Source: a virus
Length of the DNA: 64,000 nt
Reading direction: 5' to 3' (one strand)
IMG/VR virus record: IMGVR_UViG_3300045988_183652
Coordinates: 1-64,000 of that record
The notes beneath the pieces were generated by a model. That model was not told the origin of the DNA, made no database searches, and saw only the letters and a program-made list of their open reading frames with translations. Shown in pieces: positions 12,243 to 57,621 of the stretch. Numbering within the stretch: the first letter of the stretch is position 1; each line of letters opens with the position of its first letter. Made by a program: the position numbers and the translations under genes.

Positions 12243-12327
12243 GGAGAGGTGGCCGAGCGGTTGAAGGCACCGGTCTTGAAAACCGGCGATGCGAAAGCAT
12301 CCGTGGGTTCGAATCCCACTCTCTCCG
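12243..12327 (+). tRNA. tRNA-Ser (anticodon TGA), CCA encoded (12328-12330)
   Basis: Cloverleaf with long variable arm (GGCGATGCGAAAGCATCC), anticodon loop cTTGAAa, T-arm GTGGGTTCGAATCCCAC. Confidence 0.85.
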
Positions 12328-12343
12328 CCAAAAGTAAAAAATA

Positions 12344-12477
12344 AGTACGGACGGTATAACCGGAATTAACGCCTGTGGAGATGCATGGTCATCGTGGAAG
12401 CAGGAATACTCTGTTAGCTGGTCATTCATGTGAGAGATGATGTCAGCACTTTTAGGGAACTGAATATGCCTGTGTCG
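12344..12477 (+). ncRNA. conserved ~135-nt array-leader / putative scaffold RNA element, copy A
   Basis: AGTACGGACGGTATAACCGGAATTAACGCCTGTGGAGATGCATGG...GGAATACTCTGTT..GCTGG..GTGAGAG...GGGAACTGAATA, shared at ~85% with copies at 43010, 44159, 45545 and more divergently 12711. Starts immediately 3' of tRNA-Ser. Confidence 0.5.
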
Positions 12478-12635
12478 GGTGTATGAAACCCTGAAAAAGC
12501 AGTGGTGTATACCATCAACGCAGTCCCATTAGAGTGCCGGAGAGGTATATAAAGCCCCGAAATAGCAGGGTTGTATACCATGTTGACTACGGGAATCACA
12601 GTATACAGGGCCTTAAAACAATAGGGTTATACACC
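12478..12635 (+). CRISPR. CRISPR-like mini-array A (3 degenerate 36-nt repeats, spacers 30 and 21 nt)
   Basis: Repeats at 12478-12513, 12544-12579 and 12601-12635, consensus GGTATAyAnnnCCCnGAAAnAnCAGGGTTGTATACC. Each repeat is an imperfect hairpin (GGTATACA...TGTATACC). Confidence 0.45.
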
Positions 12636-12704: not shown

Positions 12705-12710
12705 TTAAAA

Positions 12711-12850
12711 AGTACGGATGGTATAACCGGAATTAACGCCTGTGGAGACGAACTCCGTCGCTAAAGCAGGAACTTGCCATGAGCTGAATTCTGCGTGAGA
12801 GGCGGTGCAACGCCGAGGTGGGAGTACCTTGGGGGAACATTAGCAAGCGC
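12711..12850 (+). ncRNA. conserved array-leader element, divergent solo copy B (no array)
   Basis: AGTACGGATGGTATAACCGGAATTAACGCCTGTGGAGACGAACTCCGTCGC...GTGAGAGGCGGTGCAACGCC...GGGGGAAC. It has the same architecture as the other copies but different internal hairpins. Confidence 0.4.
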
Positions 12851-22888: not shown

Positions 22889-22959
22889 GATGTTTTCTCC
22901 TTTCTCCCAGCCTGTGATAAGGACTTACGGGAAACCAAAATAAAATGTATATATAGAAA

Positions 22960-23095
22960 AAGACAATCACTGCCCGAAAAGGGAAGTGATTGTCTGAATT
23001 TGTGATGTGACTTGAAAAACGGAGATAAAACTCCTTATAAAAATATCTTCGTAATTATACTATTATACTACCACGTTTCGCTATTTTGTCAACAG
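22960..23095 (-). promoter_or_regulatory. promoter + leader-hairpin cassette M1 (family-1)
   Basis: Minus strand: TTGACA-N16-TAGTATAATAGTATAAT, then GGAGTTTTATCTCC hairpin, then the hairpin GACAATCACTTCCC-ttttc-GGGCAGTGATTGTC + U-rich tract before the RBS. Homologous cassettes are M2-M6. Confidence 0.55.
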
Positions 23096-23107
23096 CAGCA
23101 ACGTAAA

Positions 23108-23140
23108 AAAAGAAGCTCCCGAAGGAGCTTCTTTTGAAAT
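23108..23140 (-). terminator. terminator of operon 2
   Basis: GAAGCTCC-cgaa-GGAGCTTC hairpin with T7 on minus strand. Confidence 0.6.
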
Positions 23141-23159
23141 TTAGTTTTTTATCTTGCTT

Positions 23160-23826: not shown

Positions 23827-24888
23827 TTAAATGGAGCAAGTAAATGTGTCATTGCAGCCAGACTTTTCCGTCTCTTTTTCCCATGCCTCAGTAATCTTGT
23901 TGCTGGGAGCGCCGGATGCCTTCTTCCATACAATAGTATCACCGCTGACTTCCAGCGCATCATCGCAAAAGACAAGCGAATTAAAGGTATGCTCGTCTTC
24001 ATAGAGTGCCAGATGCATCGGGTTCAGCATGACTGCGCCTTCCGTCAGCAGCATACGGGCCCAGAGCTGGTATTCAAGAGACCAGCGGGACGTTTCCGTC
24101 GGCAGGTCGCCATACAGCTCGTCCAGCTTTCGCAGGATGGAGGCGCAAATCACGCAGCCTGCGGGAGTTCCGTGATGCGTACCGAGATACGGCAGCTTGG
24201 CGAAGAATAGGGGACTCTCAGCATACTCGTCTTCCGCATAGGCGTAAAACGTTAGCTCCATGTCCGCTGCTGCGAAGAACCGGTCGGGAAGGATATCCTT
24301 CACTTTGCAGTTGCTCCAGACAACATCATCCGAAAGGAATCTGAAGCCAAGAGGCTCCGTCCTATCAGGTGTGAGGTACTTCCGTGCCATATGTCGGACG
24401 AGGGCAACGAAACCCAGCTCATGCCGCAGCGTCGGCACATCGTCAAAGATTCTGTGAATGTTTGCCCACAGCTTCTCTTCGCTTCGTTCCACGCACTCGA
24501 AAAAGAGTTTGCAGGACGACCCGTGTGTGAACACGACACTCAGGGTCACGAGCCAAGGTGCGAAATCATCAGGCTTCAGAACATACTCTTTCTGCCCAGT
24601 ACAGGCGACCGGCACAAACCAACCACCCGCACGAGCTTCGCTATACGAAGCGTCCTCCGCAGCATAGGCGGTTGTTCTGAAGGCATCGTCGGTGTCCTTA
24701 TCGGGAATTTCAATGGCATCGCCCTTGCAGATACACTTGAAGGGGACATACATTTCCACCTCTCTAATGCCGTCGCCATCTGTATCATCCGTATCACGGC
24801 AGTAACGCACGATATGGACTAATACGTTCTCGTCGCAATGCAGCTTTCGCTTGTTCGAAATTAGATTATCCATGTTTTCTCCTTTCAA
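23827..24888 (-). CDS. hypothetical protein, paralog 1 of tandem pair
   Basis: 353 aa; shares ELTFYAYAEDEYAESPLFFAKLP...LEYQLWARMLLTEGAVMLNP with the adjacent 344-aa gene. Confidence 0.5.
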   Translation of the reverse strand: MKGENMDNLISNKRKLHCDENVLVHIVRYCRDTDDTDGDGIREVEMYVPFKCICKGDAIEIPDKDTDDAFRTTAYAAEDASYSEARAGGWFVPVACTGQKEYVLKPDDFAPWLVTLSVVFTHGSSCKLFFECVERSEEKLWANIHRIFDDVPTLRHELGFVALVRHMARKYLTPDRTEPLGFRFLSDDVVWSNCKVKDILPDRFFAAADMELTFYAYAEDEYAESPLFFAKLPYLGTHHGTPAGCVICASILRKLDELYGDLPTETSRWSLEYQLWARMLLTEGAVMLNPMHLALYEDEHTFNSLVFCDDALEVSGDTIVWKKASGAPSNKITEAWEKETEKSGCNDTFTCSI

Positions 24889-24890
24889 CG

Positions 24891-25925
24891 TCAGCCAGTT
24901 ACGATGCAGGTAAAAGCCTCATCGCCGGACTCACTCATGTCATTCTCCCACGCCTCGGCGATTACGCTGATAGGTGTTTTGACAGCCTTTGTCCACGCAA
25001 TACCGTCACCGCTGTCTTCCAGCATTTTATTACCGAAAGCCAGCGTTTTGAATTCGTAGGCGCAGTCGGGGAGGTCGAGGTGCTTCGGATTCAGCATGAC
25101 CGCACCTTCTGCCAGCAGCATACGAGCCCAAAGCTGATATTCCAGAGCCCATTTTGTTGTGTCTTCAGGCAGGTCGCCGTACATCTCATCCAGCTTCTGC
25201 AGCAGTTCTGCGATTGCAGCACGTCCCTCAGGCTCGTTGTACCGTTCGCCCAAATCGGGCAGTTTGGCAAAGAACAGAGGAGACGCTGCATACTCGCCGT
25301 CGGAATAGGCGAAGAACGTCAGCTCTATCCCAGAAGAGGCAAGGACCTTTTCTGGAAGGATATCCTTTACATCGCACTTTGCGTGGTTCACACTGTCCGA
25401 GATGAGACGGTATCCGAACTGTTCCGTCCATTCACGGGAGAGTTCCTGCACTGCCATGTCTGCGGCGATAACGGGACGACGCCCACTGTACGTATTTACC
25501 CCATCCTCGAATCTTGTTCGCATATTGCTGATGATGTCTTTGGTGTCGCTGAGAACGCTTTCGATAAGAAGCCGACAGCCGCGCCAATCCTCTTCTTCAG
25601 TGATGAGGAGGGATGTGATATATGGTGCAAAATCGGTGGGATAGAGAATCAGCTCAGTCTCATCACCGTCCGCTGTAGCCTTCACAATCCAACCGCACTC
25701 GTTCTCTTCTCGGCATCTTTCCTCGAAATAAGCGTTTGTGAGGGCGGAAAAGTGCAGCTCGCATCCGTCGTCGCCAAAGACACTCACAGAATCGCCATTA
25801 CGGATTTCCTTGAAAGGAACGAATGTGTCCTCGAAACGGTCGTGCTTGGGGTTTTTGCGGGAGACCTTAACCAGCGTGTTCTCGTCGCAGAAAGCTGCGG
25901 CGGCTCTGATAGATGCATTGTTCAT
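24891..25925 (-). CDS. hypothetical protein, paralog 2 of tandem pair
   Basis: 344 aa; ELTFFAYSDGEYAASPLFFAKLP...LEYQLWARMLLAEGAVMLNP. Confidence 0.5.
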   Translation of the reverse strand: MNNASIRAAAAFCDENTLVKVSRKNPKHDRFEDTFVPFKEIRNGDSVSVFGDDGCELHFSALTNAYFEERCREENECGWIVKATADGDETELILYPTDFAPYITSLLITEEEDWRGCRLLIESVLSDTKDIISNMRTRFEDGVNTYSGRRPVIAADMAVQELSREWTEQFGYRLISDSVNHAKCDVKDILPEKVLASSGIELTFFAYSDGEYAASPLFFAKLPDLGERYNEPEGRAAIAELLQKLDEMYGDLPEDTTKWALEYQLWARMLLAEGAVMLNPKHLDLPDCAYEFKTLAFGNKMLEDSGDGIAWTKAVKTPISVIAEAWENDMSESGDEAFTCIVTG

Positions 25926-28661: not shown

Positions 28662-28889
28662 TTTATTCTCCTTTCTCTAAATCTGCTTGTAAGGCCCAAG
28701 TGTGATAGACAGGTTGTAGATATAATTACCACAACGCACACATTCGTCGTTCTTTCCCCACAAGCCGCTTGCTTTCATACCGCGCACGCTGCCTGTATAA
28801 TGGATAGACGGGTGTGTATCGCACTCGTGCTGGGTAAGCTCCTTTTGTTTCATGCGTTTTCTCCTTTCGTTTTTATTTGTTCTGAATAT

Positions 28890-29030
28890 ATAAAAAGACA
28901 GTCGTTCCCAAATGAGAACAACTGTCTTGAATATGATGATGTGACTGAAAACGGAGATAAATCTCCTTATAAAAATATCTTCGTAATTATACTACTATAC
29001 TACCACAATTCTTTATAATGTCAACGGAAA
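28890..29030 (-). promoter_or_regulatory. promoter + leader-hairpin cassette M2
   Basis: Minus strand: TTGACATTATAAAGAATTGTGGTAGTATAGTAGTATAATTACG; GGAGATTTATCTCC; AAGACAGTTGTTCTC-atttg-GGAACGACTGTCTT + UUUUUAUAUAU. Confidence 0.55.
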
Positions 29031-29039
29031 CGGTACAAA

Positions 29040-29075
29040 AAAAAGAAGCCCCCGAAAGAGCTTCTTTTTAAGTTA
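29040..29075. terminator. bidirectional terminator
   Basis: GAAGCCCCC-gaaa-GAGCTTC hairpin flanked by A8/T5. Confidence 0.55.
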
Positions 29076-29078
29076 AGG

Positions 29079-29582
29079 TTATTCGTTCTTTGCAGTCTTA
29101 TCGGCGATACCATCGAAGATGTTGCCAACAACACGGATTTCGGTGCCGAGCAGCTTACAAAACGGAACAAAATGTCCGTTGTCGTAAGCCTCGTCCATCA
29201 GCTCTGCTGCCGTTTTTGTTTTCAAAGACTCACTAACCAGCAGGCCAAAGGAACCATTTCGGAACACAACCGTGTTCTCGTTGAAGAGAGGAGTGGGGCG
29301 GAATCCTTCAAAGGTCTCCACGATGTCTCCTTCGAACACCTTTGCGCCGTCCTTGTCGATGATGCCGGTGTATTGTGTTACGGTATCCGCGTAGACGCCG
29401 CAAACATCGCGGCTTTCAGCCGTGTCGGACAAGTACGTGTAGATGATGGCGAAGTCCTTCGGGCTATTATGGGGACGTGCGGCGCCCCCGTAGACCCAAA
29501 TTCCCGGCAGGGGTGCTCCGGTTGCCATGCGAACTTTCTCGCCATGCCGACGGACCTGACCACGAAACAGGATTTCTTTCAT
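29079..29582 (-). CDS. hypothetical protein
   Basis: 167 aa. Confidence 0.45.
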   Translation of the reverse strand: MKEILFRGQVRRHGEKVRMATGAPLPGIWVYGGAARPHNSPKDFAIIYTYLSDTAESRDVCGVYADTVTQYTGIIDKDGAKVFEGDIVETFEGFRPTPLFNENTVVFRNGSFGLLVSESLKTKTAAELMDEAYDNGHFVPFCKLLGTEIRVVGNIFDGIADKTAKNE

Positions 29583-32822: not shown

Positions 32823-32884
32823 ATTTTTCTCCTTTCTCCCAGCCTGTGATAAGGTCTTACGGGAACAAAAATGTAGTGAATATA

Positions 32885-33025
32885 TAAAAAGACAGTCGCT
32901 CTCAAAAGAGAACAACTGTCTTGAATGTGATGATGTGACTGAAAACGGAGACAAAGCTCCTTATAAAAATATCTTCGTAATTATACTACTATACTACCAC
33001 ATTTCCTTATAATGTCAACGGTTTC
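32885..33025 (-). promoter_or_regulatory. promoter + leader-hairpin cassette M3
   Basis: TTGACA...TAGTATAGTAGTATAATTACG; GGAGCTTTGTCTCC; AAGACAGTTGTTCTC-ttttg-AGAGCGACTGTCTT + U-tract. Confidence 0.55.
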
Positions 33026-33036
33026 GACGCAAAAGA

Positions 33037-33068
33037 AAAGAGCCGCATAGCGGCTCTTTTTTTTAGGC
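33037..33068. terminator. bidirectional terminator
   Basis: AGAGCCGC-ata-GCGGCTCT + T8. Confidence 0.6.
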
Positions 33069-35875: not shown

Positions 35876-35919
35876 TATGTTTTCTCCTTTCTTATTGTGT
35901 TTGTAATGTAAAAAAATAT

Positions 35920-36058
35920 ATAAAAAGACAGCTATCCCTGTTTTGGGATAACTGTCTTGAATACTTGGTGTGACTGGAAGCGGAGATAAGTCTCCTTATA
36001 AAAATATCTTCGTAATTATACTATTATACTACCACAATTATTTATAATGTCAACAATA
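35920..36058 (-). promoter_or_regulatory. promoter + leader-hairpin cassette M4
   Basis: TTGACATTATAAATAATTGTGGTAGTATAATAGTATAATTACG; GGAGACTTATCTCC; AAGACAGTTATCCC-aaaac-AGGGATAGCTGTCTT + U-tract. Confidence 0.55.
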
Positions 36059-36062
36059 GCAG

Positions 36063-36095
36063 AGAAAAAAGAGGCGGCTTTCGCCTGCCTCTTTT
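36063..36095. terminator. bidirectional terminator
   Basis: AGAGGCGG-ctttcgcc-TGCCTCT + T7. Confidence 0.55.
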
Positions 36096-41144: not shown

Positions 41145-41217
41145 GCTGGTGTAGCTCAGTAGGCAGAGCGGCGCATTCGTAACGCGCAGGTCGTGGGTTC
41201 GACCCCCACCGTCAGCT
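41145..41217 (+). tRNA. tRNA-Thr (anticodon CGT), CCA encoded
   Basis: 73-nt cloverleaf GCTGGTG/TAGCTCAGTAGGCAGAGC/anticodon loop tTCGTAa/GTGGGTTCGACCCCCAC; A31:C39 mismatch. Confidence 0.75.
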
Positions 41218-41302
41218 CCATTCCATACTCATTCTCCTTCAAGTGAAGCCCCCGTGTAACAGGTCTTTTGAAAAGTGCTTTCAGCCTCGTTGTGCGGGGG
41301 CT

Positions 41303-41375
41303 TCACGACTATGCTGATGTAGCTCAGTTGGCAGAGCGGCGGATTTGTAAACCGCAGGTCGGGGGTTCAAGGCCC
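41303..41375 (+). tRNA. tRNA-Thr (anticodon TGT), CCA encoded
   Basis: GCTGATGTAGCTCAGTTGGCAGAGC...anticodon loop tTTGTAa...GGGGGTTCAAGGCCCCC. Confidence 0.75.
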
Positions 41376-41423
41376 CCCATCAGCTCCATTAAAACCATGT
41401 GCTTTTGTGGTGTTTTTATATGC

Positions 41424-41497
41424 GCGGATGTCGTCTAATTTGGTGAGACACCAGCCTTCCAAGCTGGTCATTGCGGGTTCGAGTCCCGTCGTCCGCT
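41424..41497 (+). tRNA. tRNA-Gly (anticodon TCC), CCA encoded
   Basis: GCGGATG..anticodon arm CCAGC-cTTCCaa-GCTGG..GCGGGTTCGAGTCCCGT. Confidence 0.75.
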
Positions 41498-41532: not shown

Positions 41533-41889
41533 TCTGCTTGTTTGTCCTGTGTTTTTCGGACAACATCGGCGAGCGCAAAAGTCGCCTGAAGCGTGAGAAG
41601 CGAGCTGCCTGCACCTGTTTTGCGGGCGGTGGCGTGATAAGGGTGAAACTCTGCGCTTTCAGTAGCCGAAAGCAGATGAGCAAAAGTCTCCGCGAACGCC
41701 TGCATGGTTCGCGGGACAAGGGAAGCCGGAAAAATAAGTAAACGCGGACCGTGCGCAGAGGTTGGTGGCGTATTCCAGACGTGGGTGCTGCCTTTTATGC
41801 TGTGCTTGTTTGCGTGGGGTCCGGTGTTCTCGCAGTCTGGATGGTTGCTGCGAGAGGTGCCAAAACTTATTGCGAAAGGACGGAGTTCT

Positions 41890-42948
41890 ATGCCAACTAC
41901 ATTTCAAGCGTTTAAGTATCGCATTTACCCGACTGATGAGCAGGTCGAAATCATTGAAAAGACATTCAAGTGCTGCCGGTTTGTGTGGAACCATTTCCTT
42001 GAGCGAACCTCCAAAATCTATGACCGTCGGCAGGAAAAGATGACGACCTTCGACTGTATGAAGGTTCTCACGGAGATGCGGGAGCGCTGGCCTTGGCTTG
42101 CGGACTGCGGCTGTACGGCAGAGAGATATGCCATCATTGATTTGTTTGAGGCGCGAAAAGCGTTCTTCCGCCGCATTAAAGCGGGGGAGAAGCCCGGTTA
42201 TCCCAAATTTAAGGGCGCGTCCCATCCGACACAGAGTTTTACGACCGCTGGTACTATCTATGTGACGGACGATTACATTCAGGTTCCGTTTGGAGGACAG
42301 TATCAGAAAATCAACAAGCTCAGGCGAGGGACGGGGCGCCCCATCGAAGGGTCTCCCCGCGAGGTCACTATTTCTCGGTCTGCTACCGGAAAATACTGGG
42401 CATCTGTCTGCTGTAAAGTAGAGCGAGACACGCTGCCTATTGTGGACGGCGAGGTGGGAATCAGTCTCGGACTGAAGGAGTTGGCTATTGACAGCAACGG
42501 CGTTCACTATGAGAACCCGAAGCATCTGAGCAAGTCTGCAAAGCGGCTGGCCCGTGAGCAGCGGCGTCTATCCCGCAAGAAGAAGGGCTCTGTCAACTAC
42601 GAGAAGCAGCGGCGCAAGGTAGCCGGCGTCCATGAGCATATTGCCAATCAGCGCAATGACTACCGGCATAAAATCAGCCGTGAACTTGTCAACGCAAACC
42701 AGCTTATTGCCGTTGAGAAGGTGGCCGTTAAGCCCTTAGTTGAGGGCAATGAGCAGGCTAAAAGCATCCTCGATGCCGGCTGGTCTGAACTTACCGGTAT
42801 GATAAAGTATAAGGCGGACTGGGCTGGACGCACTCTGGTGGACGTAGATACCGCCACCGTAGCACCGGAAGCCAAGCATGATGAGGCACTGGCACAGGTC
42901 GTGCTGTCCGAAGGTCAGCGCAAGGCATCCGAGCAGAATCCTGCCTAA
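41890..42948 (+). CDS. TnpB-like protein, nuclease-dead and C-terminally truncated (TldR-like candidate)
   Basis: Start at ATG 41890 (MPTTFQAFKYRIYPTDEQ, classic TnpB/OrfB N-terminus; GGAG RBS). RuvC-I motif GxDxG reads GISLG (Asp->Ser). The RuvC-II Glu is retained (IAVEKV). The protein stops just after the YKADWAGR motif, with no zinc finger or RuvC-III. There is no tnpA nearby. Confidence 0.7.
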   Translation: MPTTFQAFKYRIYPTDEQVEIIEKTFKCCRFVWNHFLERTSKIYDRRQEKMTTFDCMKVLTEMRERWPWLADCGCTAERYAIIDLFEARKAFFRRIKAGEKPGYPKFKGASHPTQSFTTAGTIYVTDDYIQVPFGGQYQKINKLRRGTGRPIEGSPREVTISRSATGKYWASVCCKVERDTLPIVDGEVGISLGLKELAIDSNGVHYENPKHLSKSAKRLAREQRRLSRKKKGSVNYEKQRRKVAGVHEHIANQRNDYRHKISRELVNANQLIAVEKVAVKPLVEGNEQAKSILDAGWSELTGMIKYKADWAGRTLVDVDTATVAPEAKHDEALAQVVLSEGQRKASEQNPA

Positions 42949-42989: not shown

Positions 42990-43009
42990 ATTGCCAAGGA
43001 AATAAAAAC

Positions 43010-43143
43010 GAGTACGGACGGTATAGCCGGAATTAACGCCTGTGGAGATGCATGGTCGTCGTGGAAGCAGGAATACTCTGTTGGCTGGTTTGTTATGTGA
43101 GAGGTGGCGACCAGCACTTTCGGGGAACTGAATACCTGTGCTT
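43010..43143 (+). ncRNA. conserved array-leader / putative guide-scaffold element, copy C
   Basis: GAGTACGGACGGTATAGCCGGAATTAACGCCTGTGGAGATGCATGGTCGTCGTGGAAGCAGGAATACTCTGTTGGCTGG...GTGAGAGGTGGCGACCAGCACTTTCGGGGAACTGAATACC. Confidence 0.5.
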
Positions 43144-43177
43144 GGTATACACCACCCGGAAATAACAGGGTTTTACC
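43144..43177 (+). CRISPR. single CRISPR-like repeat (array C, degenerate 3' end)
   Basis: GGTATACACCACCCGGAAATAACAGGGTTTTACC directly abutting leader copy C. Confidence 0.35.
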
Positions 43178-44140: not shown

Positions 44141-44158
44141 ACTGAAAATCTCAAAAAC

Positions 44159-44290
44159 GAGTACGGACGGTATAACCGGAATTAACGCCTGTGGAGATGC
44201 ATGGTCGTCGTGGAAGCAGGAATACTCTGTTGGCTGGTCTTCACGTGAGAGGTGATACCGGCACTTTCGGGGAATTGAATACCTATGCTG
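44159..44290 (+). ncRNA. conserved array-leader element, copy D
   Basis: Near-identical to copy C. Confidence 0.5.
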
Positions 44291-44457
44291 GGTATACACC
44301 ACCCGGAAATAACAGGGTTGTATACCACTCGACCGCCCCACTAACCCCGTGGGGGAGGTATACACCCCCAGAAATAACAGGGTTGTATACCATTGCAAAT
44401 GAGCTCTTTTGCGGTCTTGAGGGTATATACCACCCGGAAATAACACCGTTGCATACC
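44291..44457 (+). CRISPR. CRISPR-like array D (3 repeats of 35-36 nt, 2 spacers of 30 nt)
   Basis: Repeats at 44291-44326, 44357-44391 and 44422-44457. Spacers are actcgaccgccccactaaccccgtggggga and attgcaaatgagctcttttgcggtcttgag. Confidence 0.5.
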
Positions 44458-44494
44458 ATATAAATAAGATAGTCTACAGGGAGGAGGGAGCTTA

Positions 44495-45016
44495 ATGGCC
44501 TCGAAAAAGATATATAGTTCCCCTGAGCTCTATGAAGATAAGCTGGTGCGCGTGATGGCGCGTCTTGGTATTGAAGTTGGTGACTACAACTACGACTGGA
44601 GTCGTCAGGAATGTTGGGTCGAGTTCAGATACAAGGGGGAATATTATCGCTTTTCTCACAGTGTAAAGAACGCTCAAGAGCACGGCATCTCCCTGCAGTA
44701 CGGCTCCGATGCCTTTGCACAGGTCGTGCTCTCTTTGGAAGACCTCGCCCGTATGGTCGAACGAGGCATCTACGACCTGTCTACATGGGTGGCCGGCATG
44801 AAAGCCCTGCCGAAGCGCTCCGAGTCATTAGATGCCTGCTTTATTGCTCTCGGTTTCGTAGAGCCGCCAACATCCAAGGAAGAAATCACACTCCACTATC
44901 GGCGGCTGGCAAAGGTATATCACCCTGATGCCGGCGGCGATAGCTGCTCATTTGATGCGCTATCTAACAACTACACAAAATGCATGGAGATGTTCGAGGA
45001 GGCTGCCGAGAAGTAA
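44495..45016 (+). CDS. J-domain (DnaJ-like) protein
   Basis: C-terminal ITLHYRRLAKVYHPDAGGD (HPD motif); GGAGGGAG RBS. Confidence 0.5.
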   Translation: MASKKIYSSPELYEDKLVRVMARLGIEVGDYNYDWSRQECWVEFRYKGEYYRFSHSVKNAQEHGISLQYGSDAFAQVVLSLEDLARMVERGIYDLSTWVAGMKALPKRSESLDACFIALGFVEPPTSKEEITLHYRRLAKVYHPDAGGDSCSFDALSNNYTKCMEMFEEAAEK

Positions 45017-45522
45017 TGTATATGTCTCAGAAAGAGTTCAATGCAATGATGAAGAAAAACCCCCGCCTCCGTGTTCACGGTGCAAACAACACACGCGAAC
45101 ATCGTTCCAAGGCGAACAAGGCGGCAAAATATAGAAACGTAAAGGTCTACGAGTACGCCGATGGGCTGTCCTTTTTCGGTAAGCCCCGCAATAGTGGTGA
45201 ACTCCCTATCGCTGTCTATGACAGTAAGAAGGAGTACCACCGCTGGAAAGAGCTTCAGATTCTGGAGCGCGGCGGACATATCCACGACCTTCGCCGGCAG
45301 GTGCCTTTGACCATCATTACCGAGTTCGAGTATCGTGGTCAGAAGGTCTCCGGTATTACTTACAAAGCCGACGCCGTCTATGTGCGCGACGGCAAGTGTG
45401 TGGTAGAGGACGTGAAGCCCTTCGATACCACAACGCAGAAGTATCGAACTACAAAGGATTTCAACCTCAAGTGGAAGCTGCTCAAGGCTGAATATCCTGA
45501 GTGGAGCTTCGAAATTTTTTAG
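45016..45522 (+). CDS. hypothetical protein
   Basis: Start at TAATG overlap (MYMSQKEFNAMMKKNP...); GAGGAGG upstream. Confidence 0.45.
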   Translation: MYMSQKEFNAMMKKNPRLRVHGANNTREHRSKANKAAKYRNVKVYEYADGLSFFGKPRNSGELPIAVYDSKKEYHRWKELQILERGGHIHDLRRQVPLTIITEFEYRGQKVSGITYKADAVYVRDGKCVVEDVKPFDTTTQKYRTTKDFNLKWKLLKAEYPEWSFEIF

Positions 45523-45544
45523 CGTAACAGGTTTCAAGAACAAC

Positions 45545-45678
45545 GAGTACGGACGGTATAACCGGAATTAACGCCTGTGGAGATGCATTGTCGTCGCGGA
45601 AGCAGGAATACTCTGTTGGCTGGTAGTCACGTGAGAGGTGGCACCAGCGCTTTGGGGAACTGAATATATCCTGTGCCG
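45545..45678 (+). ncRNA. conserved array-leader element, copy E
   Basis: GAGTACGGACGGTATAACCGGAATTAACGCCTGTGGAGATGCATTGTCGTCGCGGAAGCAGGAATACTCTGTTGGCTGG... Confidence 0.5.
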
Positions 45679-46118
45679 GGTGTATGAGGGCCTGAAATGA
45701 CAGGGGGTATACCCTAACAGCGCAGTAACGTTTAGTGAAGTACGGGTGTATAGAGTCCTGAAACAGCAGGGTTGTATACCATGGAAATGTTCGGCTGACG
45801 GTGCAACACAAGACCACGTGTATACACCACCCAGAAATAACAGGGTTGTATACCCCTTGTTATATGAAAACACCATGGAAAACAGGTATACACCACCCCG
45901 GAATAACAGGGTTGTATACCATGGAGGATGGGCGCTTCACCTTGCAGGTGGGCGTATAAAGCCCTGAAATATCAGGGTTGTATACCTGACTCGTGATGAT
46001 ATTCTCACCGCAGTACGGTATATAGAACCCCGAAATAGCATGGTTGTATACCCTCTCGACTGCAATGAAAAAGCACTACAAAGGTATATAGAGCCCTGAA
46101 ATAACAGTGTTGTATACC
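45679..46118 (+). CRISPR. CRISPR-like array E (7 degenerate 33-37-nt repeats, 6 spacers of 30-38 nt)
   Basis: Repeats start at ~45679, 45745, 45818, 45885, 45954, 46017 and 46083. All end in GTTGTATACC (or GGGTATACCC) and begin with GGTrTAyA. Spacers are unique. Confidence 0.5.
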
Positions 46119-46238
46119 CGCAATACGCCACAGTCCATGTAATACAGGAGGCGGTATTTTCCTCGCTTACTTCGACCTTGTGCAGTAAGAGATTGCACCG
46201 GTCGCTTGCTTGCTCCGCAAATTTGTTCGCTCGAAGAA

Positions 46239-46318
46239 CTTGACAAAATATCGAAATATAGTAGTATAGAATTATAAGGAAGGACAGTCTAACACAGACT
46301 GTCCTTCCGCTTTTTTAT
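46239..46318 (+). promoter_or_regulatory. promoter + leader-hairpin cassette M6 (plus-strand version)
   Basis: TTGACA-aaatatcgaaatatag-TAGTATAGAATTATAA, then GGAAGGACAGTCT-aacac-AGACTGTCCTTCC + GCTTTTTT, an intrinsic-terminator-like hairpin a few nt after the predicted TSS. Confidence 0.55.
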
Positions 46319-46341
46319 GCTCTGAAAGGGGATGACAATTT

Positions 46342-47139
46342 TTGGAAAGCACAAGCAAAAAACAAGTAAAATGGGGGATTTTCAAGACTGCACTCTTTAC
46401 GTTCCTGTTCGTCGCCGTATCCGCTTTCTACTTTCTCTCCGCCAACGTGACACTCGCACAGGCCGAAGAGCACTCAAACCACGAGGTGCCTCCTGCTGGA
46501 GCAGCGGTTGCCACCCAGATGGACGACACCAAGCTGTCGGAAAAAGCGCAGCAAGATGTTCTGGAACTGAAGGAAGGAGTTCTCGACCCTCTTTCCGACA
46601 TCACAGAAGCAGAGAACTCTGAAGATGACCCCGACGCCGTGGAGGAAGTACAGGAAGTCGTTCCGACAGTCTGTTCCTACTGCGGCTCTGAGAACCATAG
46701 TTCCTCAATCTGTGCAAAGAGGTCTATCGCCAATGGTGCCTATGGGCGCTGGGCGATTCCGTCTGTTGGCTGTAATGTAGCGGCCTACTCGTGTAACTGG
46801 GATGCAGACCAATCCTATATTCAGGAAATTACTGACAGCTCCGACAGTGCAGCTTTTTTGACTTGCGGCGGCGTTGGTGTTCTTGCAGACCACAATAACC
46901 AAGGTTTCTTGGGACTTTCCAATGTTTCTGTTGGCACGAAAGCCTACATGGACTTTGGTGATGGCGCAACTTACTACGAGTGCTATCAGGTTGAATACGG
47001 ACACAATACCGGCGAAAAGATGCTCGATGGAAATGGAAACATAATGAGCTACAGTAACTATTCTTCCGGCACTGTGATTTGTTACACCTGCCTTGACCAC
47101 TGGACCAACATTTACATCACTTACTGGACGCCGGTATAA
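46342..47139 (+). CDS. secreted/membrane-anchored CCHC zinc-knuckle protein, paralog 1
   Basis: TTG start with GAAAGGGGA RBS. N-terminal signal/TM segment, acidic linker, CSYCGSENHSSSIC (CX2CX4HX4C), then a conserved C-terminal domain (ADHNNQGF...YxCxxxxYGHN...YTCxDHW). Confidence 0.55.
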   Translation: MESTSKKQVKWGIFKTALFTFLFVAVSAFYFLSANVTLAQAEEHSNHEVPPAGAAVATQMDDTKLSEKAQQDVLELKEGVLDPLSDITEAENSEDDPDAVEEVQEVVPTVCSYCGSENHSSSICAKRSIANGAYGRWAIPSVGCNVAAYSCNWDADQSYIQEITDSSDSAAFLTCGGVGVLADHNNQGFLGLSNVSVGTKAYMDFGDGATYYECYQVEYGHNTGEKMLDGNGNIMSYSNYSSGTVICYTCLDHWTNIYITYWTPV

Positions 47140-47180
47140 GTGCCAGACACCCACTCTCTACTCTAAGAAAGGACGAAACC

Positions 47181-47981
47181 ATGAAAACGAAATTCAAAAT
47201 CCCTCGGTGGGCACTCTTCACCGTTATCATTCTGGCCTTTATCGGTGGTCTCTTTGCCATCTCCATGCTGCCTGCTTTCGCATCACGTGAAAGCTCTCCG
47301 CCTTTGGCAGTAGCAGAAGCCGCGCAGAACGAGGAAAAGGACGCAAATTCTGATGCTCAGACTCCCGAAGCAGACAAGACGACAGATGAACAGGGAAGTG
47401 CTGAAGCCCCCGCAGAGGCCGCGTCTCAGGCAGACGACGCCGTCGTTGTCGAAGAGACTCCCGCCGAAGCGCCTGTTCAGGAAACCCCGACTACCTGTTC
47501 CTACTGCGGCAGTGCAGAACACACCAGAGACTACTGCGCCGTTCGTGCCGTTGACAATGGTGCCGTTGGCCGGCTCCGGATTCCCTCTGTCGGTGTTGAC
47601 GTGGCTGTCTACGACGTTACTTGGTACTCTCTGCAGCATACCACCGAGAGTGACAACTACACGCAGGCCGTTACAGATGCATGGGACAGCGCAGCACAAA
47701 TCGTCTATCTCGGCCAGACCGTTATTGGCGACCATAATAATCAGGGCTTCTCCACCATCAACAACTGCTCCGAAGGCACCTACGCTTACATCGACATGGG
47801 CGACTCTGTCCTGACCTATGTTTGCACCGGCATCCAGCATGGTCGTAACCCCGGTGGCTATCTCACCGGTGCCGATGGCGATAGCATCTATACCTCTTAC
47901 TTCAATCCCAACGGTCTGACGCTGTATACCTGTCTCGACCACAACTTCAATGTTGCCCTCGTGACATTCCAGCCTGCTTAA
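47181..47981 (+). CDS. secreted CCHC zinc-knuckle protein, paralog 2
   Basis: Signal/TM anchor, A/E-rich linker, CSYCGSAEHTRDYC, GDHNNQGF...YTCLDHN. Confidence 0.55.
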   Translation: MKTKFKIPRWALFTVIILAFIGGLFAISMLPAFASRESSPPLAVAEAAQNEEKDANSDAQTPEADKTTDEQGSAEAPAEAASQADDAVVVEETPAEAPVQETPTTCSYCGSAEHTRDYCAVRAVDNGAVGRLRIPSVGVDVAVYDVTWYSLQHTTESDNYTQAVTDAWDSAAQIVYLGQTVIGDHNNQGFSTINNCSEGTYAYIDMGDSVLTYVCTGIQHGRNPGGYLTGADGDSIYTSYFNPNGLTLYTCLDHNFNVALVTFQPA

Positions 47982-47997
47982 AGGGGGTGCAGCTTTA

Positions 47998-48771
47998 ATG
48001 AAAACAAAGAAGATTTCCCGCCGCGCTGTTACGCTGGCTGCCTTTTTGCTGGTAAGCGCATCATCTTTACATATGGCTTGTGCAGAGGCTGCGGTGCCGT
48101 TCGATTACTTTACTGATGACCTCTCTGTGTCCGCTGCCGCCGTTGCTGAGGAAGATAAATACCTGCCTCCTGAGTGGTTCACAAAAGAAAATGCTGTAAG
48201 TGAAGTAGACTCAGACACGCCTCCGGTGGAGACTCCTACCCCTGCGGGCGAATCCTCTGTGGCGACCCCCGTGCCTGAGCCCGCACCGGAAACCGCAGCA
48301 GCCTGCAGCTATTGCGGCAGCGCAGGGCACTCGCAGAATAGGTGTGCCGTTTACGCTGTCGAACAGCGAGGTGCCGTTGGGCGTTGGTCTATCCCTTCTA
48401 TTGGAATAGATGTCGCTTGCTTCACCTATGTGCTTGGAAGCGATTCCTTCGAGTACGGACAGGCAATTTGTGACGCTGCCGATAGTGCCGGCTACAGTGC
48501 GTATGGGAGCCAGTATCTCATTGCAGACCACAACTATCAGGGCTTTTCTGCCATAGCCAACTGCGCGGTCGGTGCGGTGGGATATATGGATTACGGAAAC
48601 AGTCGAACAGAATATGTTTGTACTGGGGTGGAGTATGGGCACAATGAAGGCACGGAACTGACTGATAATGACGGAAACGATGTTGCGTACAACAACAGTG
48701 GAGGAATTACCCTTTACACCTGTTACAACGGCTGGCAAAACGTCGTCATAGCGTATTTTACTCCGGTTTAA
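47998..48771 (+). CDS. secreted CCHC zinc-knuckle protein, paralog 3
   Basis: Signal peptide, CSYCGSAGHSQNRC, ADHNYQGF...YTCYNGW. Confidence 0.55.
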   Translation: MKTKKISRRAVTLAAFLLVSASSLHMACAEAAVPFDYFTDDLSVSAAAVAEEDKYLPPEWFTKENAVSEVDSDTPPVETPTPAGESSVATPVPEPAPETAAACSYCGSAGHSQNRCAVYAVEQRGAVGRWSIPSIGIDVACFTYVLGSDSFEYGQAICDAADSAGYSAYGSQYLIADHNYQGFSAIANCAVGAVGYMDYGNSRTEYVCTGVEYGHNEGTELTDNDGNDVAYNNSGGITLYTCYNGWQNVVIAYFTPV

Positions 48772-48855: not shown

Positions 48856-49053
48856 ATGATAAAAATGGCACGTCCCGTTGAAACCATAGACCCCAAGTTA
48901 GAAACGAGCAGATATATAACTGTTGATGGGGAGTATGAAGAACGAGAATCCTTTGCCGGAATGGTTTACAGCGACTCTTTACTGCAATCATTCTTCAGGA
49001 GGACTTGGAAGCGGCTTGAAGATGCCGCGAACGCCCATCAGGATACTCCCTGA
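48856..49053 (+). CDS. small hypothetical protein
   Basis: 65-aa ORF with AAAGGAAATGA upstream; weak support. Confidence 0.3.
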   Translation: MIKMARPVETIDPKLETSRYITVDGEYEERESFAGMVYSDSLLQSFFRRTWKRLEDAANAHQDTP

Positions 49054-49157
49054 TGGGCATTTTTCCCAAGAACTTACGACTTGTCATTTTTTTATGTGGG
49101 TTGTATAATATAGGTGAACGTCTTTGCAGAGGGCGTAACTTATAGGAAAGGGGACTT

Positions 49158-50735
49158 ATGCCTACAGAAAGAAAGAAGAAAACAACAAAAGAAGAAAACG
49201 CAAAAAATAACTCAACAAAAAACACAATAAAAAAACCAAGAAACTCAACAAGTAACGCGAAAAGCAAGAAAGAAAGCAAGTCTCTTTTGGGGTTAAAGGA
49301 CCTGATGGAAGATACGTCTCCGGAAAAGGTCGTCGGCTGTTATGTTCGCGTGTCTACCGATGCACAGGCGGAGCAGGGATATTCTATACCTGACCAAACA
49401 GCCAAATTGCAGGCCTTTTGCACCGTAAAAGGCTGGGAGAACGCGAAATTCTACACGGACCCCGGATTCAGCGGCAGCAACTTAAATCGACCGGCAATGC
49501 AGGAAATGATATCCGATGCGATGGAAGGGAAGCTGAAGGCGGTTGTCGTCTTCAAGCTGGACCGCCTCTCCAGAAGTCAGAAGGATACTCTTTATTTAAT
49601 AGAAGATGTATTTCTTCCGAACGAGGTGGATTTTGTAAGCATTTCCGAGGCCCTCGACACTACCACTCCTTATGGACGAGCGATGATAGGCATTTTGAGC
49701 GTCTTCGCCCAGTTGGAACGCGAGAATATCTATATGCGAACCCGTATTGGAATGATGGGTCGTGTAAGTGCGGGGTATTGGCGTGGCGGTGGAAAAGTTC
49801 CGTTTGGCTATGATTATGATAAGGAAAGCAAATCCCTTATCCCAAACGCTGACGCACCAAAAGTGCCGCAGGCTTACGACCTCTACATCAAGGGCTATAG
49901 TTGCCAGAAAATTGCGGATATGCTCGGACTAAGTTGCGAACAGCTCGTGAGGAATATTCTCACCAAGCGCACATATTGCGGCTACATCAACTACAAAGGT
50001 AAAGACTATAAGGGTTTCCACGAGCCTTTGATTGATGAAGAGCGGTTCATGCTCGTGGCCGCAGAAATGGAACGCCGTGGGAAGGAAAATCTCGCAGTAT
50101 GCGGCAACAATAAATATTATCTTCTTACCGGGCTTGTTTTCTGCGGAGATTGTGGAGCCAGAATGCGGTACATGAAGTGGGGGAAGTATATCCGTATCGT
50201 CTGCTACTCGCACACGTGTAAAAAGAACATGGTTAAGGACCCCGATTGTCCGAACAAGGGAGTTCGCGCAGAAGAACTTGAGAAGGTTGTTGTCTCAAAA
50301 CTTTTTGACATTGGTACTGACATTTCTCTCGACGATTTTGACGACACCCACGTGCCTGCAAGTGCAGCAGAAATCCTGACGAACCGGATAGATGAGCTGA
50401 AGGAGTCTCTCAGGCGCCTATATGGGCTCTATGCCGACATCGGAGACCCCATGGTGTACGAGCGCATTGAGGATGTGCGAGGACAGCTCCACGTATTGCA
50501 GAGACAGCTTGCAAGCGAGGAAACGCAGAAACTCAAGGAAGAGCACATCAACTACGTCCGTGAGAAAATTCAGACTATTGGAGACCTCTGGCCCCATCTT
50601 ACTCCTATGGAGCGCCAAACTCTTGTTCGTGATTGTGTTGAGAAGGTTATTTTGCATCACAACGGACGTGTTGAGGTTTACTACACTTTCCATACTGAGA
50701 AAGATAGTAAAATTCTCAAAAGGAAAGGCGCATAA
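49158..50735 (+). CDS. large serine recombinase (integrase/resolvase family) with Lys-rich N-terminal extension
   Basis: Catalytic domain VGCYVRVSTDAQAEQGYSIPDQ (Ser nucleophile), recombinase and zinc-ribbon domains (CGDCGARMRY...C...C), coiled-coil C-terminus; GGAAAGGGGA RBS. Confidence 0.8.
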   Translation: MPTERKKKTTKEENAKNNSTKNTIKKPRNSTSNAKSKKESKSLLGLKDLMEDTSPEKVVGCYVRVSTDAQAEQGYSIPDQTAKLQAFCTVKGWENAKFYTDPGFSGSNLNRPAMQEMISDAMEGKLKAVVVFKLDRLSRSQKDTLYLIEDVFLPNEVDFVSISEALDTTTPYGRAMIGILSVFAQLERENIYMRTRIGMMGRVSAGYWRGGGKVPFGYDYDKESKSLIPNADAPKVPQAYDLYIKGYSCQKIADMLGLSCEQLVRNILTKRTYCGYINYKGKDYKGFHEPLIDEERFMLVAAEMERRGKENLAVCGNNKYYLLTGLVFCGDCGARMRYMKWGKYIRIVCYSHTCKKNMVKDPDCPNKGVRAEELEKVVVSKLFDIGTDISLDDFDDTHVPASAAEILTNRIDELKESLRRLYGLYADIGDPMVYERIEDVRGQLHVLQRQLASEETQKLKEEHINYVREKIQTIGDLWPHLTPMERQTLVRDCVEKVILHHNGRVEVYYTFHTEKDSKILKRKGA

Positions 50736-50894
50736 AAATTAGAAACGCGCCTCTTCTGAGGCGCGTTTGCTTTTCAAAAAAACTTAAAACCAATTCCAGC
50801 AAAAGGGTCGTTTTTTTCTCCTTTCCAACACCATGCCGATGGTGTTGTGAAGATGAAAAAACTCTGAGGCTGGTATTCCGAGGAGCGTGTTTTC

Positions 50895-57331: not shown

Positions 57332-57389
57332 AAATGTTTTGTTTTTTGTGAGGTTGAGATTTGGTTATTGATGTAGTTTTTTTATATTA

Positions 57390-57527
57390 AAAAAGACAGC
57401 TATCCTTCAAAAAGGATAACTGTCTTTGATAAATGATGGTGTCTTGAAACGGAGATAAATCTCCTTATAAAAATATCTTCGTAATTATACTACTATACTA
57501 CCACGTTTCATTATTTTGTCAACAGGA
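57390..57527 (-). promoter_or_regulatory. promoter + leader-hairpin cassette M5
   Basis: TTGACAAAATAATGAAACGTGGTAGTATAGTAGTATAATTACG; GGAGATTTATCTCC; AAGACAGTTATCC-tttttgaa-GGATAGCTGTCTT + UUUUUAAUAUA. Confidence 0.55.
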
Positions 57528-57621
57528 CAAGGCGAGAAAAAATGAGGTTTTTCCCTGTGGTTATTGCACGTGTGAAATTCTTCTGATATACTTTATAGCA
57601 CGATAGAGAGGGGGCTTTTGT

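Follow-up and report, generated by a model that had tools for sequence, protein, structure and literature searches.

Three tandem genes of predicted exported sortase-fold proteins with a putative zinc knuckle adjoin the integrase gene of a phage-like element

The gene triplet and its surroundings

The window analyzed here is a whole 64-kb stretch of DNA of a phage-like element. Three consecutive genes on its plus strand, S1 (46342-47139, 265 aa, TTG start), S2 (47181-47981, 266 aa), and S3 (47998-48771, 257 aa), are situated between a repeat array (45677-46123), which lies upstream of S1, and the gene of a large serine recombinase, i.e., the integrase (49158-50735, plus strand; matches to Resolvase, Recombinase, and Zn_ribbon_recom). 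The initial annotation of this DNA had placed the three ORFs, their lengths, and their position between the array and the recombinase gene exactly there. The intergenic gaps are 41 nt (S1-S2) and 16 nt (S2-S3) long, and both contain a Shine-Dalgarno-like sequence.

The three proteins have a mutual identity of 34-36%; S2 and S3 are 34-35% identical to S1. As was noticed initially, they share one architecture: a hydrophobic N-terminal segment (anchor or signal) is followed by an acidic linker, a CX2CX4HX4C motif, and a C-terminal domain, which has about 135 aa by the present analysis. In S1 the anchor or signal occupies approximately aa 11-41; the acidic linker, the CCHC motif (aa 111-124, nt 46672-46713), and the sortase-fold domain described below (about aa 132-265) follow. 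The CCHC motif and the domain are found at aa 106-119 (nt 47496-47537) and about aa 127-266 in S2, and at aa 103-116 (nt 48304-48345) and about aa 124-257 in S3.

Export of S1-S3 is plausible. Each N-terminus is basic and continues into a hydrophobic 19-mer (Kyte-Doolittle means 1.93, 2.58, and 1.76 for S1, S2, and S3), and residues 5-46 form a helix in the first AlphaFold2 model. The hydropathy and the positive-inside pattern, as judged by reading the sequences, fit export. An AXA-like motif at the end of each hydrophobic stretch allows cleavage as well as anchoring. The anchor of S3 is weakly hydrophobic and rich in Ala and Ser, and on direct reading it resembles signal-anchor-release sequences. 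A hydrophobic N-terminal segment is present in 142 of the 167 examined sequences of the domain family.

Upstream of S1 there is a sigma-70-type promoter-like site (46240-46267, plus strand; TTGACA, 16 nt, TAGTAT; 10 of 12 matches in a consensus scan only). It belongs to a conserved block of about 125 nt upstream of S1; the DNA from about 46192 to 46341 is nearly identical in 28 variants of the locus, while that upstream of about 46192 is a mosaic among them. A GC-rich hairpin of 13 bp followed by a U-run (46278-46318, plus strand) separates the promoter-like site from the start codon of S1. The hairpin is kept in all variants, has a fold energy of -35.4 kcal/mol (z = -5.0), and is terminator-like on both strands. 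It could be a 5'-terminal stabilizer, an attenuator, or a terminator of the upstream array transcript. The position of the triplet suggests that it may be expressed in the lysogen; such a strong hairpin with a U-run between the promoter-like site and S1 counts against this suggestion. The assignment of the triplet to a recurring "family-1" expression cassette was not confirmed, as a search of the window at up to three mismatches found the 34-nt promoter-like segment only once. Rfam at gathering thresholds gave four tRNAs only and no match for the leader, the array, or the hairpin.

Downstream of S3 lies a small ORF of 62 aa (48865-49053, plus strand), which is also a gene call in related contigs; it has no family match and is possibly the operon's final gene. 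A terminator-like hairpin with a T-run (49033-49066, plus strand) closes the unit before the promoter-like site of the integrase (49081-49109). We consider it fairly probable, jointly with the rest of the explanation proposed below, that S1, S2, and S3 form one operon.

The carriers of the locus are phage-like IMG/VR genomes of 172-192 kb. The triplet is 0.4-2.8 kb away from the integrase gene and less than 4.6 kb away from the attachment site (attP core CCAACACCATGCC/GATGGTGTTG, 50825-50847, plus strand). The element integrates into sigG right after the integrase gene, and integrated copies switch to the host sigG sequence after ...CATGCC. No virion genes were found in the 64-kb window; thus the label "phage" is based on the inclusion of the element in IMG/VR and on a few matches to PHROGs.

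Of 28 related loci outside the window, 27 have the full triplet and the remaining one (L062) has two of the genes. The three copies are old duplicates. Among orthologues, purifying selection acts on both the C-terminal domain (dN/dS 0.06-0.15) and the knuckle (0.07 in S1 and S2); the S3 knuckle has no substitution at all. The linker is the sole relaxed part, and there is no hypervariable segment. Thus the tandem diversification of a host-range type that had been suggested for these genes is not seen among orthologues, and a diversity-generating or host-range cassette was rejected on the same grounds. Pseudogenes or decaying duplicates were rejected in view of the low dN/dS and the intactness of all copies in the 28 loci.

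Fold and active site of the C-terminal domain

The AlphaFold2 model (pLDDT roughly 80-97 over the domain) shows the C-terminal domain as a predicted eight-stranded sortase β-barrel. Foldseek against the PDB gave 127 matches at E <= 0.001, and the best 50 of the 127 are all sortases with probability 1.00. The matches include structures 2w1j and 2w1k of class C (pilus) sortases. A search in BFVD, a library of viral structures, gave one significant match, an unnamed one. The relationship to sortases, which was not recognized in the initial annotation, explains most of the architecture, namely the anchor, the linker, and the catalytic domain. Sortases (MEROPS C60; PF04203; classes A-F; e.g., those of S. 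pyogenes and S. agalactiae and SrtA of S. aureus) have an N-terminal anchor or signal and a linker that keep the domain outside the cell, an arrangement that is plausible for S1-S3 as well.

At the level of sequence the proteins stay under all curated sortase cut-offs. S2 and S3 score 20.4 and 17.3 bits against Pfam Sortase (PF04203, cut-off 26.6) and S1 gives no match; with this profile, E falls below 0.001 for no more than 3 of the 122 family members. The best NCBIfam match of S2, a weak one, is to class C sortases (21.3 bits vs a cut-off of 160), and the TIGR01076 score is 15.8 bits vs a cut-off of 39.35. Comparison of the family profile with S. aureus SrtA by hhalign gave a probability of 83-85%, pairing GRWAIPSVG with GYIEIPDAD and YTC with ITC. 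A sequence-profile search of the PDB returned sortases at E 0.2-0.7, so that the assignment rests on fold and not on sequence. A PHROGs match of S2 to a Zot-like family (E 6e-4) was rejected as spurious, being a low-complexity match over the anchor and the linker. No match was obtained for S2 by tblastn against annotated phages and annotated plasmids, for the 25 kb around the locus by megablast against annotated phages and plasmids, or for S1-S3 and the neighboring cassette proteins with the PADLOC models of defense systems. In the library of papers searched, none mentions both "sortase" and "zinc knuckle", and nothing relevant turned up on phage-encoded or sortase-like proteins.

Cys and His residues of a catalytic type had been noticed in the domain before, and they do occupy the sortase catalytic positions: as in sortases, strand β4 ends with the His, and the Cys is part of a TLXTC-like motif where β7 ends. 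These are His184 (nt 46891) and Cys250 (nt 47089) in S1, His185 (nt 47733) and Cys251 (nt 47931) in S2, and His178 (nt 48529) and Cys242 (nt 48721) in S3. Both residues are invariant in 122 family representatives. Strand β4 (residues 178-184) ends in an invariant D183-H184, and the motif is DH-x2-Q-G-F where sortases have GH. The hhalign register near the His is shifted by a 5-residue loop difference, and therefore its equivalence to the sortase His rests on the strand position and the motif. The Cys stands in the motif TLYTC in S2 and S3 and VICYTC in S1, which aligns to LITC of S. aureus SrtA; T and C of this motif are invariant in the 122 representatives, and the preceding Y is found in more than 90%. 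The β1 motif G-x-h-x-IP is also common to sortases and S1-S3. The motifs that had been called invariant are real but near-invariant, e.g., GRWAIPSVG, GRLRIPSVG, and GRWSIPSIG or YTCLDHW, YTCLDHN, and YTCYNGW in S1, S2, and S3, respectively.

The Arg of strand β8 binds the sorting signal and stabilizes the oxyanion in sortases, and the His-Cys-Arg triad is reported to be common to all sortases (PMC8225981). Unlike sortases, S1, S2, and S3 have neither Arg nor Lys C-terminal to the Cys. SrtA R197 aligns to I257/N256, where the family consensus is N (76%) and V/I. The absence of the canonical Arg means that catalysis of the sortase type may be impaired or changed. Further differences from sortases are a β7-β8 loop of just 4-5 residues and a conserved polar set of the family's own (R136, Q161, D165, D168-S-A, Q187, C214, G220-x-N222, and N256), in which R136, Q161, D165, D168-S-A, C214, and N222 are invariants.

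The β6/β7 loop determines specificity in sortases. In the triplet its base is conserved (GHNTGxxLxD) and its distal part differs among S1, S2, and S3, which suggests one chemistry with three specificities. A loose scan of protein C-termini in the window and within ±10 kb of homologues gave no convincing candidate for a protein with a sorting signal, and there are no pilin genes beside S1-S3.

The putative zinc knuckle

The exact CX2CX4HX4C motif reported initially is present in all three proteins, as CSYCGSENHSSSIC in S1, CSYCGSAEHTRDYC in S2, and CSYCGSAGHSQNRC in S3. Its conservation in orthologues is complete, the C, C, H, and C being unchanged in every copy across the 28 related loci. In the wider family the knuckle marks one clade: it is found in 50 of 167 sequences, and about 70% of the domain family lacks it. 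One branch (P0017-P0019) has a Cys-rich ribbon-like module in its place. The spacing from the knuckle to strand β1 is fixed at 10 residues in 43 of the 50 cases. The knuckle region of the AlphaFold2 model is moderately confident (pLDDT 50-79).

The likeness to retroviral-type knuckles (PF00098; HIV NC, Ty3 Gag, Arc) was confirmed as a resemblance of sequence: the spacing is the same, a Gly follows the second Cys, an aromatic residue stands between the first two Cys, and there are weak matches to the Ty3 Gag and Arc knuckle profiles (E 0.03-0.17). All three proteins are below the Pfam gathering cut-off for zf-CCHC (PF00098; S1 has 13 bits vs 20.8), while the match of one relative has E 7.7e-4. 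The sequence around nucleocapsid knuckles is basic. Unlike them, the knuckle of S1-S3 is single, is predicted to be outside the cytoplasm, and has acidic flanks (mean net charge -4.2 for the 25 residues that precede it and -0.6 for the knuckle itself), so that its context is not the basic intracellular one; it is also rigidly spaced from the catalytic domain, and its metal binding is putative.

The fixed spacing and the acidic flanks make a structural metal module more likely than a nucleic-acid binder. Together with the predicted location and the absence from most of the family, they make the nucleic-acid binding that had been supposed for the knuckle unlikely. The knuckle is best read as a probable small metal-stabilized addition to the catalytic domain. 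In the hosts, which are of the gut Clostridia type and presumably anaerobes, extracytoplasmic thiols could stay reduced. In class C sortases a "lid" element is situated just before β1, and in S1-S3 the knuckle occupies that place.

Family distribution and possible role

The domain family, which has no name in any database, is sizeable: clustering at 50% identity leaves about 1,344 representatives. All members whose names were checked are "hypothetical protein". Its carriers are mobile elements of gut Clostridia and Bacilli, in which homologues adjoin genes of relaxase or MobL, a Dam-type methylase, HU, and toxin-antitoxin systems. In some members the domain is part of a fusion, and the partners are extracytoplasmic surface modules only: SH3_3 (9), Flg_new (6), Big_2 (5), SLH (2), and Cna_B. 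Some relatives bear it distally on Cna_B or Big_2 stalks. Like the knuckle extension of S1-S3, the fusions to SH3_3, SLH, Big_2, and Cna_B distinguish the family from sortases.

It is rather probable, for the explanation taken as a whole, that S1-S3 are exported Cys/His enzymes of sortase fold that alter the envelope of the carrier. The N-terminal hydrophobic segment would take each protein across or into the membrane, and the acidic disordered tether of about 60 residues would hold a compact catalytic module outside the cell. With the His at the end of β4 as a general base and the Cys at the end of β7 as a nucleophile, the Cys thiolate would most likely attack a peptide bond of an envelope substrate to form a thioacyl intermediate, as in sortases; an amine would resolve this intermediate in a transpeptidation, or water would do so in a cleavage. 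The lack of the β8 Arg, the very short β7-β8 loop, and the family's own polar set imply that the substrate, and perhaps the outcome, is probably unlike LPXTG sorting. The likely role would be remodeling of the envelope of the carrier cell to the benefit of the mobile element, e.g., removal or masking of receptors (exclusion) or trimming of wall or surface proteins. We infer an envelope role from the position of the genes beside the integrase gene and the attachment site of a phage-like element and from the presence of relatives on conjugative elements. PrgA of pCF10 and Ltp of phage TP-J34 are envelope proteins of mobile elements that act in surface or entry exclusion or in lysogenic conversion. 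They may be functional analogues of S1-S3, being exported or membrane-tethered, encoded near the end of a mobile element, and active on the carrier surface; there is no kinship of sequence or fold, and the exclusion role of S1-S3 is by analogy only.

A broader version of this explanation is tentative. The DH-x2-QGF...YTC domain might define an unrecognized mobile-element branch of the sortase superfamily, in which the Arg was replaced and the envelope reaction is a different one (e.g., cleavage or editing of wall-linked proteins or peptidoglycan stems). It would serve exclusion or envelope takeover by phages and conjugative elements of gut Clostridia, and the knuckle of one clade would be an integral part of it, possibly sensing redox state or metal.

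Alternatively, the triplet could encode ordinary sortases that link phage or host surface proteins with LPXTG-like signals to lipid II or peptidoglycan. This is supported by the sortase fold with a His and a Cys at the catalytic positions, the anchor and linker, the agreement of TLYTC in S2 and S3 with the sortase signature TLXTC, and the weak preference of S2 for class C. Tandem copies also recur in the family (two in locus L001), and several diverged sortase-fold genes in a row are known in pilus islands; the rlrA islet of S. pneumoniae has three tandem srtC genes of class C pilus sortases. Unlike class C sortases, S1-S3 have no DPW/DPF/DPY lid motif, no Arg, and no pilin genes alongside, and they are encoded on a prophage-like element next to an integrase gene. 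The triad Arg would be expected in such enzymes (PMC8225981), and no copy has Arg or Lys past the Cys. The scores below every curated cut-off and the lack of nearby sorting-signal proteins also do not agree with this possibility. Moreover, display on Cna_B or Big_2 stalks and fusion to SH3 or SLH wall-binding modules are hard to reconcile with an enzyme whose encounter with lipid II has to take place at the membrane. We therefore regard ordinary sortases as unlikely.

It is also improbable that S1-S3 are directed at peptidoglycan, as endopeptidases or cross-link-editing transpeptidases that open or re-tailor the wall for the passage of conjugative or phage DNA or for lysis. Fusions to SH3_3 and SLH are typical of wall hydrolases, one homologue is encoded directly 3' of a MobL relaxase gene and others in relaxase-bearing elements, and the S3 anchor with its likeness to signal-anchor-release sequences would suit such a function. 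However, the triplet adjoins an integrase gene and is not in a recognizable lysis or type IV secretion module, simple opening of the wall needs no three old paralogues, and we know of no sortase-fold peptidoglycan hydrolase that could serve as a precedent.

Non-catalytic binders of sortase fold, e.g., decoys that trap the sorting signals of the host, proteins that inhibit its sortases, or adhesins, would be compatible with the loss of the catalytic Arg and with stalk display in some relatives. However, the His, the Cys, and a further dozen polar residues are conserved across 122 diverse representatives, which is the pattern of an active site and not of a degenerate one, and dN/dS in the domain is low (0.06-0.15); thus this reading is very unlikely. 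Finally, exported nucleic-acid-binding or interaction proteins with the knuckle as the functional heart and with tandem diversification that tracks host range are scarcely credible: the exact retroviral-type spacing, the Gly after the second Cys, and the weak Ty3 Gag, Arc, and zf-CCHC matches are outweighed by a single net-negative knuckle with acidic flanks in a predicted extracytoplasmic location, by its absence or replacement with a Cys-rich module in other branches, and by purifying rather than diversifying selection on orthologues.

Sortases are textbook enzymes that serve both as a drug target and as a tool of protein engineering. All six recognized sortase classes are reported to have the His-Cys-Arg triad (PMC8225981). 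Here a large family, carried in gut Firmicutes by phage-like and by conjugative elements, retains the fold with its His and Cys but lacks the Arg. Should its members prove to be plain sortases whose Arg is relocated, the finding would shrink to a better annotation of about a thousand clusters of hypothetical proteins. A putative metal knuckle that is predicted to be outside the cytoplasm and is rigidly fused to an enzyme is in itself an unusual feature. If the exported sortase-fold enzymes proposed here are active, they would extend the chemistry or the specificity known for this fold and might be a source of new ligases or proteases. They would also point to an unstudied route for mobile elements to remodel the cell surface of abundant gut anaerobes.

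Organization and expression of the tandem genes

The three tandem genes, designated S1, S2 and S3, lie on the + strand at 46342-47139 (TTG start, 265 aa), 47181-47981 (266 aa) and 47998-48771 (257 aa), exactly as in the initial annotation. The gaps between them are 41 and 16 nt long and carry ribosome-binding-like sequences; therefore the genes look like one operon. All 28 variants share a conserved block of ~125 nt, beyond which the upstream DNA is mosaic. In this block are a site resembling a promoter (46240-46267), a hairpin of 13 bp followed by a U-run (46278-46318, z = -5.0) and the ribosome-binding site. The interval from the hairpin to S1 is too short for a promoter. Thus transcription must read through the hairpin, which may be a 5' stabiliser or an attenuator. 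A terminator-like site (49033-49058) closes the unit.

S2 and S3 are 34-35% identical to S1, and all three proteins have the architecture that had been proposed for them. A basic stretch is followed by a hydrophobic segment (Kyte-Doolittle 19-mer means 1.93, 2.58 and 1.76 in S1, S2 and S3), an acidic linker rich in Ala/Glu/Pro (disordered in the S1 structure model, pLDDT <50, residues 42-106), an exact CX2CX4HX4C knuckle (aa 111-124, 106-119 and 103-116, respectively) and a terminal conserved domain of ~135 residues. Judging by sequence, the N-terminus is of the export type. The anchor-linker-domain order is the usual layout of sortases. The domain motifs initially regarded as invariant are conserved in the alignment of the copies, being near-invariant rather than strictly invariant.

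The C-terminal domain and its relation to sortases

An AlphaFold2 model of S1, obtained from a 17-sequence alignment, has eight strands in the C-terminal domain, where pLDDT is roughly 80-97. The initial annotation had left a choice between a peptidase and a nuclease fold; a Foldseek comparison with the PDB gave 127 matches at E <= 0.001 (best E 1.4e-8), and the best 50 of them are all sortases, of classes A to D, with probability 1.00. Pfam Sortase scores S2 and S3 at 20.4 and 17.3 bits, below the cut-off of 26.6, and does not match S1; the NCBIfam class C sortase score is 21 bits, below the cut-off of 160. A profile of 152 family domains aligns with S. aureus SrtA at 83-85% probability, placing GRWAIPSVG of β1 opposite GYIEIPDAD and (C/L)YTC of β7 opposite LITC. 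The invariant D183-H184 (S1 numbering) ends the fourth strand, which is the place of the sortase His. Cys250 ends the seventh strand in the motif TLYTC (S2, S3) or ICYTC (S1), corresponding to the sortase TLXTC signature. The model, the motifs and the alignment show a predicted sortase fold with a conserved His/Cys pair at the sortase positions, and therefore the suspected Cys/His catalytic set is real.

All sortases have been described as having a His-Cys-Arg triad in common (PMC8225981). Unlike in sortases, the triad Arg is absent from S1-S3: there is no Arg or Lys among the 15 residues after the Cys, and SrtA R197 aligns with I257/N256. The family consensus at these positions is V/I and N (76%), and the position just before them is a mix of Q, R and K. 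The β7-β8 loop of the model has only 4-5 residues. The family has near-invariant polar residues of its own: R136, Q161, D165, D168-S169-A170, Q187, C214, G220 and N222. The segment aligned to the β6/β7 specificity loop of SrtA has a conserved beginning, GHNTGxxLxD, after which S1, S2 and S3 differ. Because the defining Arg was tested for and not found, we do not assign S1-S3 to sortases proper but class them with a sortase-fold family that lacks the Arg.

A profile search against 1.84 billion cluster representatives gave 1,344 members of this family at E <= 0.001 and 1,059 at E <= 1e-10. Members with a descriptive name in their source are all called “hypothetical protein”. Pfam Sortase was detected at E < 0.001 in only three of 122 scanned members. 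The additional Pfam domains in scanned members are SH3_3 (9), Flg_new (6), Big_2 (5), SLH (2), Cna_B and fn3, every one an extracytoplasmic surface module; one member of 1,404 aa has five Cna_B repeats followed by the sortase-fold domain. An N-terminal hydrophobic segment is present in 142 of 167 sequences examined. Genome matches are to MAGs and isolates of gut and rumen Clostridia and Bacilli.

The knuckle and the conservation of the copies

The CCHC residues are identical in every copy of 28 related loci, so their conservation in orthologues is confirmed. In profile comparisons the CCHC motif weakly matches the Ty3 Gag (E 0.03) and Arc (E 0.17) knuckles, which makes its likeness to retroviral-type knuckles genuine at the motif level. 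The initial annotation also emphasized nucleic acid binding. The knuckle occurs in 50 of the 167 sequences, chiefly the closest ones, and in 43 of these 50 its last Cys is placed exactly 10 residues ahead of the G in the β1 GR motif. The mean net charge is -4.2 over the 25 residues upstream and -0.6 in the knuckle itself. Its position, charge and location speak against a nucleic acid binder and favour a small extension of the catalytic domain that would be stabilised by metal at a putative site. One distant homologue (P0016) has two knuckles. A branch of three proteins (P0017-P0019) is devoid of the knuckle His and last Cys; additional Cys residues upstream make up another Cys-rich pattern, C-x9-C-x-C ... 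C-x2-C, in the corresponding position.

A comparison of orthologues, with 18-21 distinct sequences for each gene, gave dN/dS values of 0.06-0.15 for the domain and 0.22-1.1 for the linker; for the knuckle the value is 0.07 in S1 and S2, and the S3 knuckle has no substitution at all. S1-S3 are under purifying selection and are old duplicates, each conserved. They are not a diversifying cassette, and the orthologues show no sign of the suggested tandem diversification. A variant with two copies only (L062), a chimera of the S2 N-terminal and S3 C-terminal parts (P0008) and a 494-aa ORF with RuvC-like and HNH motifs (IscB-like) inserted between S2 and S3 (L046, 11842-13326) are, taken together, signs that the tandem copies recombine.

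The mobile element and a proposed role of the operon

Exact S2 copies are present on many human-gut contigs, and IMG/VR contains genomes of 172-192 kb with the same triplet. In two contigs the element sequence switches to host sequence after CCAACACCATGCC, just past the serine recombinase gene (window 50825-50847; L034 13587-14144; L036 13651-14142), and the host flank matches positions 95-257 of 258 of SigG (E 1e-74). The integration target of the element is therefore sigG, a sporulation (forespore) sigma factor gene, and the window is the element's joined form, excised or episomal. The crossover lies within the imperfect palindrome CCAACACCATGCC|GATGGTGTTG, ~90 nt after the recombinase gene. 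The arrangement is analogous to skin in sigK, with an intervening element of ~180 kb in a forespore sigma gene. The triplet, 0.4-2.8 kb from the integrase gene, is thus at one end of the prophage. PHROG matches in the window are of unknown function and no virion genes were found in its 64 kb, so we term the element phage-like. Distant knuckle-bearing homologues, a tandem pair in one case, adjoin genes of relaxases or MobL, a Dam-type methylase, HU and toxin-antitoxin systems, i.e., are in conjugative-element contexts. The mobile-element context of the triplet is evident.

Other features of the window were also recorded. The cassette upstream of the triplet (44495-45016, 44980-45522) has genes for two proteins, one that partially matches DnaJ (J-domain) and one with DUF1064. 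In L037 (8751-9404) a DnaJ-like gene is likewise two genes upstream of P0016, beside an FtsH-like protease gene, which is a possible recurring association. A TnpB/OrfB_IS605 ORF (41704-42948, +, 414 aa) matches the PADLOC Cas12f and Cas12u4 models at ~1e-42. Downstream are repeated units of a conserved ~120-nt leader (43004-43122, 44153-44271, 45539-45657) and repeats (about 43144-43175, 44280-44460, 45677-46123), interleaved with small gene cassettes. Two further leader copies (12337-12455, 12707-12748; array 12467-12582) are 31 kb away, one directly after a tRNA. The repeats are 36 nt long, hairpin-forming and somewhat degenerate, with a 66-nt period and ~30-nt unique spacers. Together with the ORF these units, which have no Rfam match, look like a guide array in miniature, type V CRISPR-like or OMEGA-derived, carried by the element. 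Three of the four tRNA genes are clustered just upstream of the TnpB-like gene (41145-41497), and one precedes a leader copy (12243-12327). Five direct repeats of ~173 nt (22946-23118, 28878-29050, 32872-33044, 35907-36079, 57376-57548), 62-89% identical to the reference copy and some of them with a terminator-like hairpin at the end (23105-23150, 29038-29083), may represent a further repeated module of intergenic regions or cassette boundaries. The adjacent minus-strand ORFs 23827-24888 and 24891-25925 (segments 24004-24312 and 25071-25379 are 71-77% identical) are another tandem paralogue pair and match no PHROGs family.

S1-S3 are a mobile-element-borne, knuckle-bearing, Arg-less branch of the sortase fold. 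A loose scan for sorting signals in the window and within ±10 kb of the homologues found no convincing substrate near the genes. We suggest as the most likely mechanism that the Cys would attack a peptide substrate of the envelope, giving a thioacyl intermediate that an amine or water would resolve; the knuckle would be a metal-stabilised structural part, and the specificities of S1, S2 and S3 would differ through the distal β6/β7 loop. The operon may remodel the envelope of the carrier cell to the benefit of the element, by exclusion or surface trimming.
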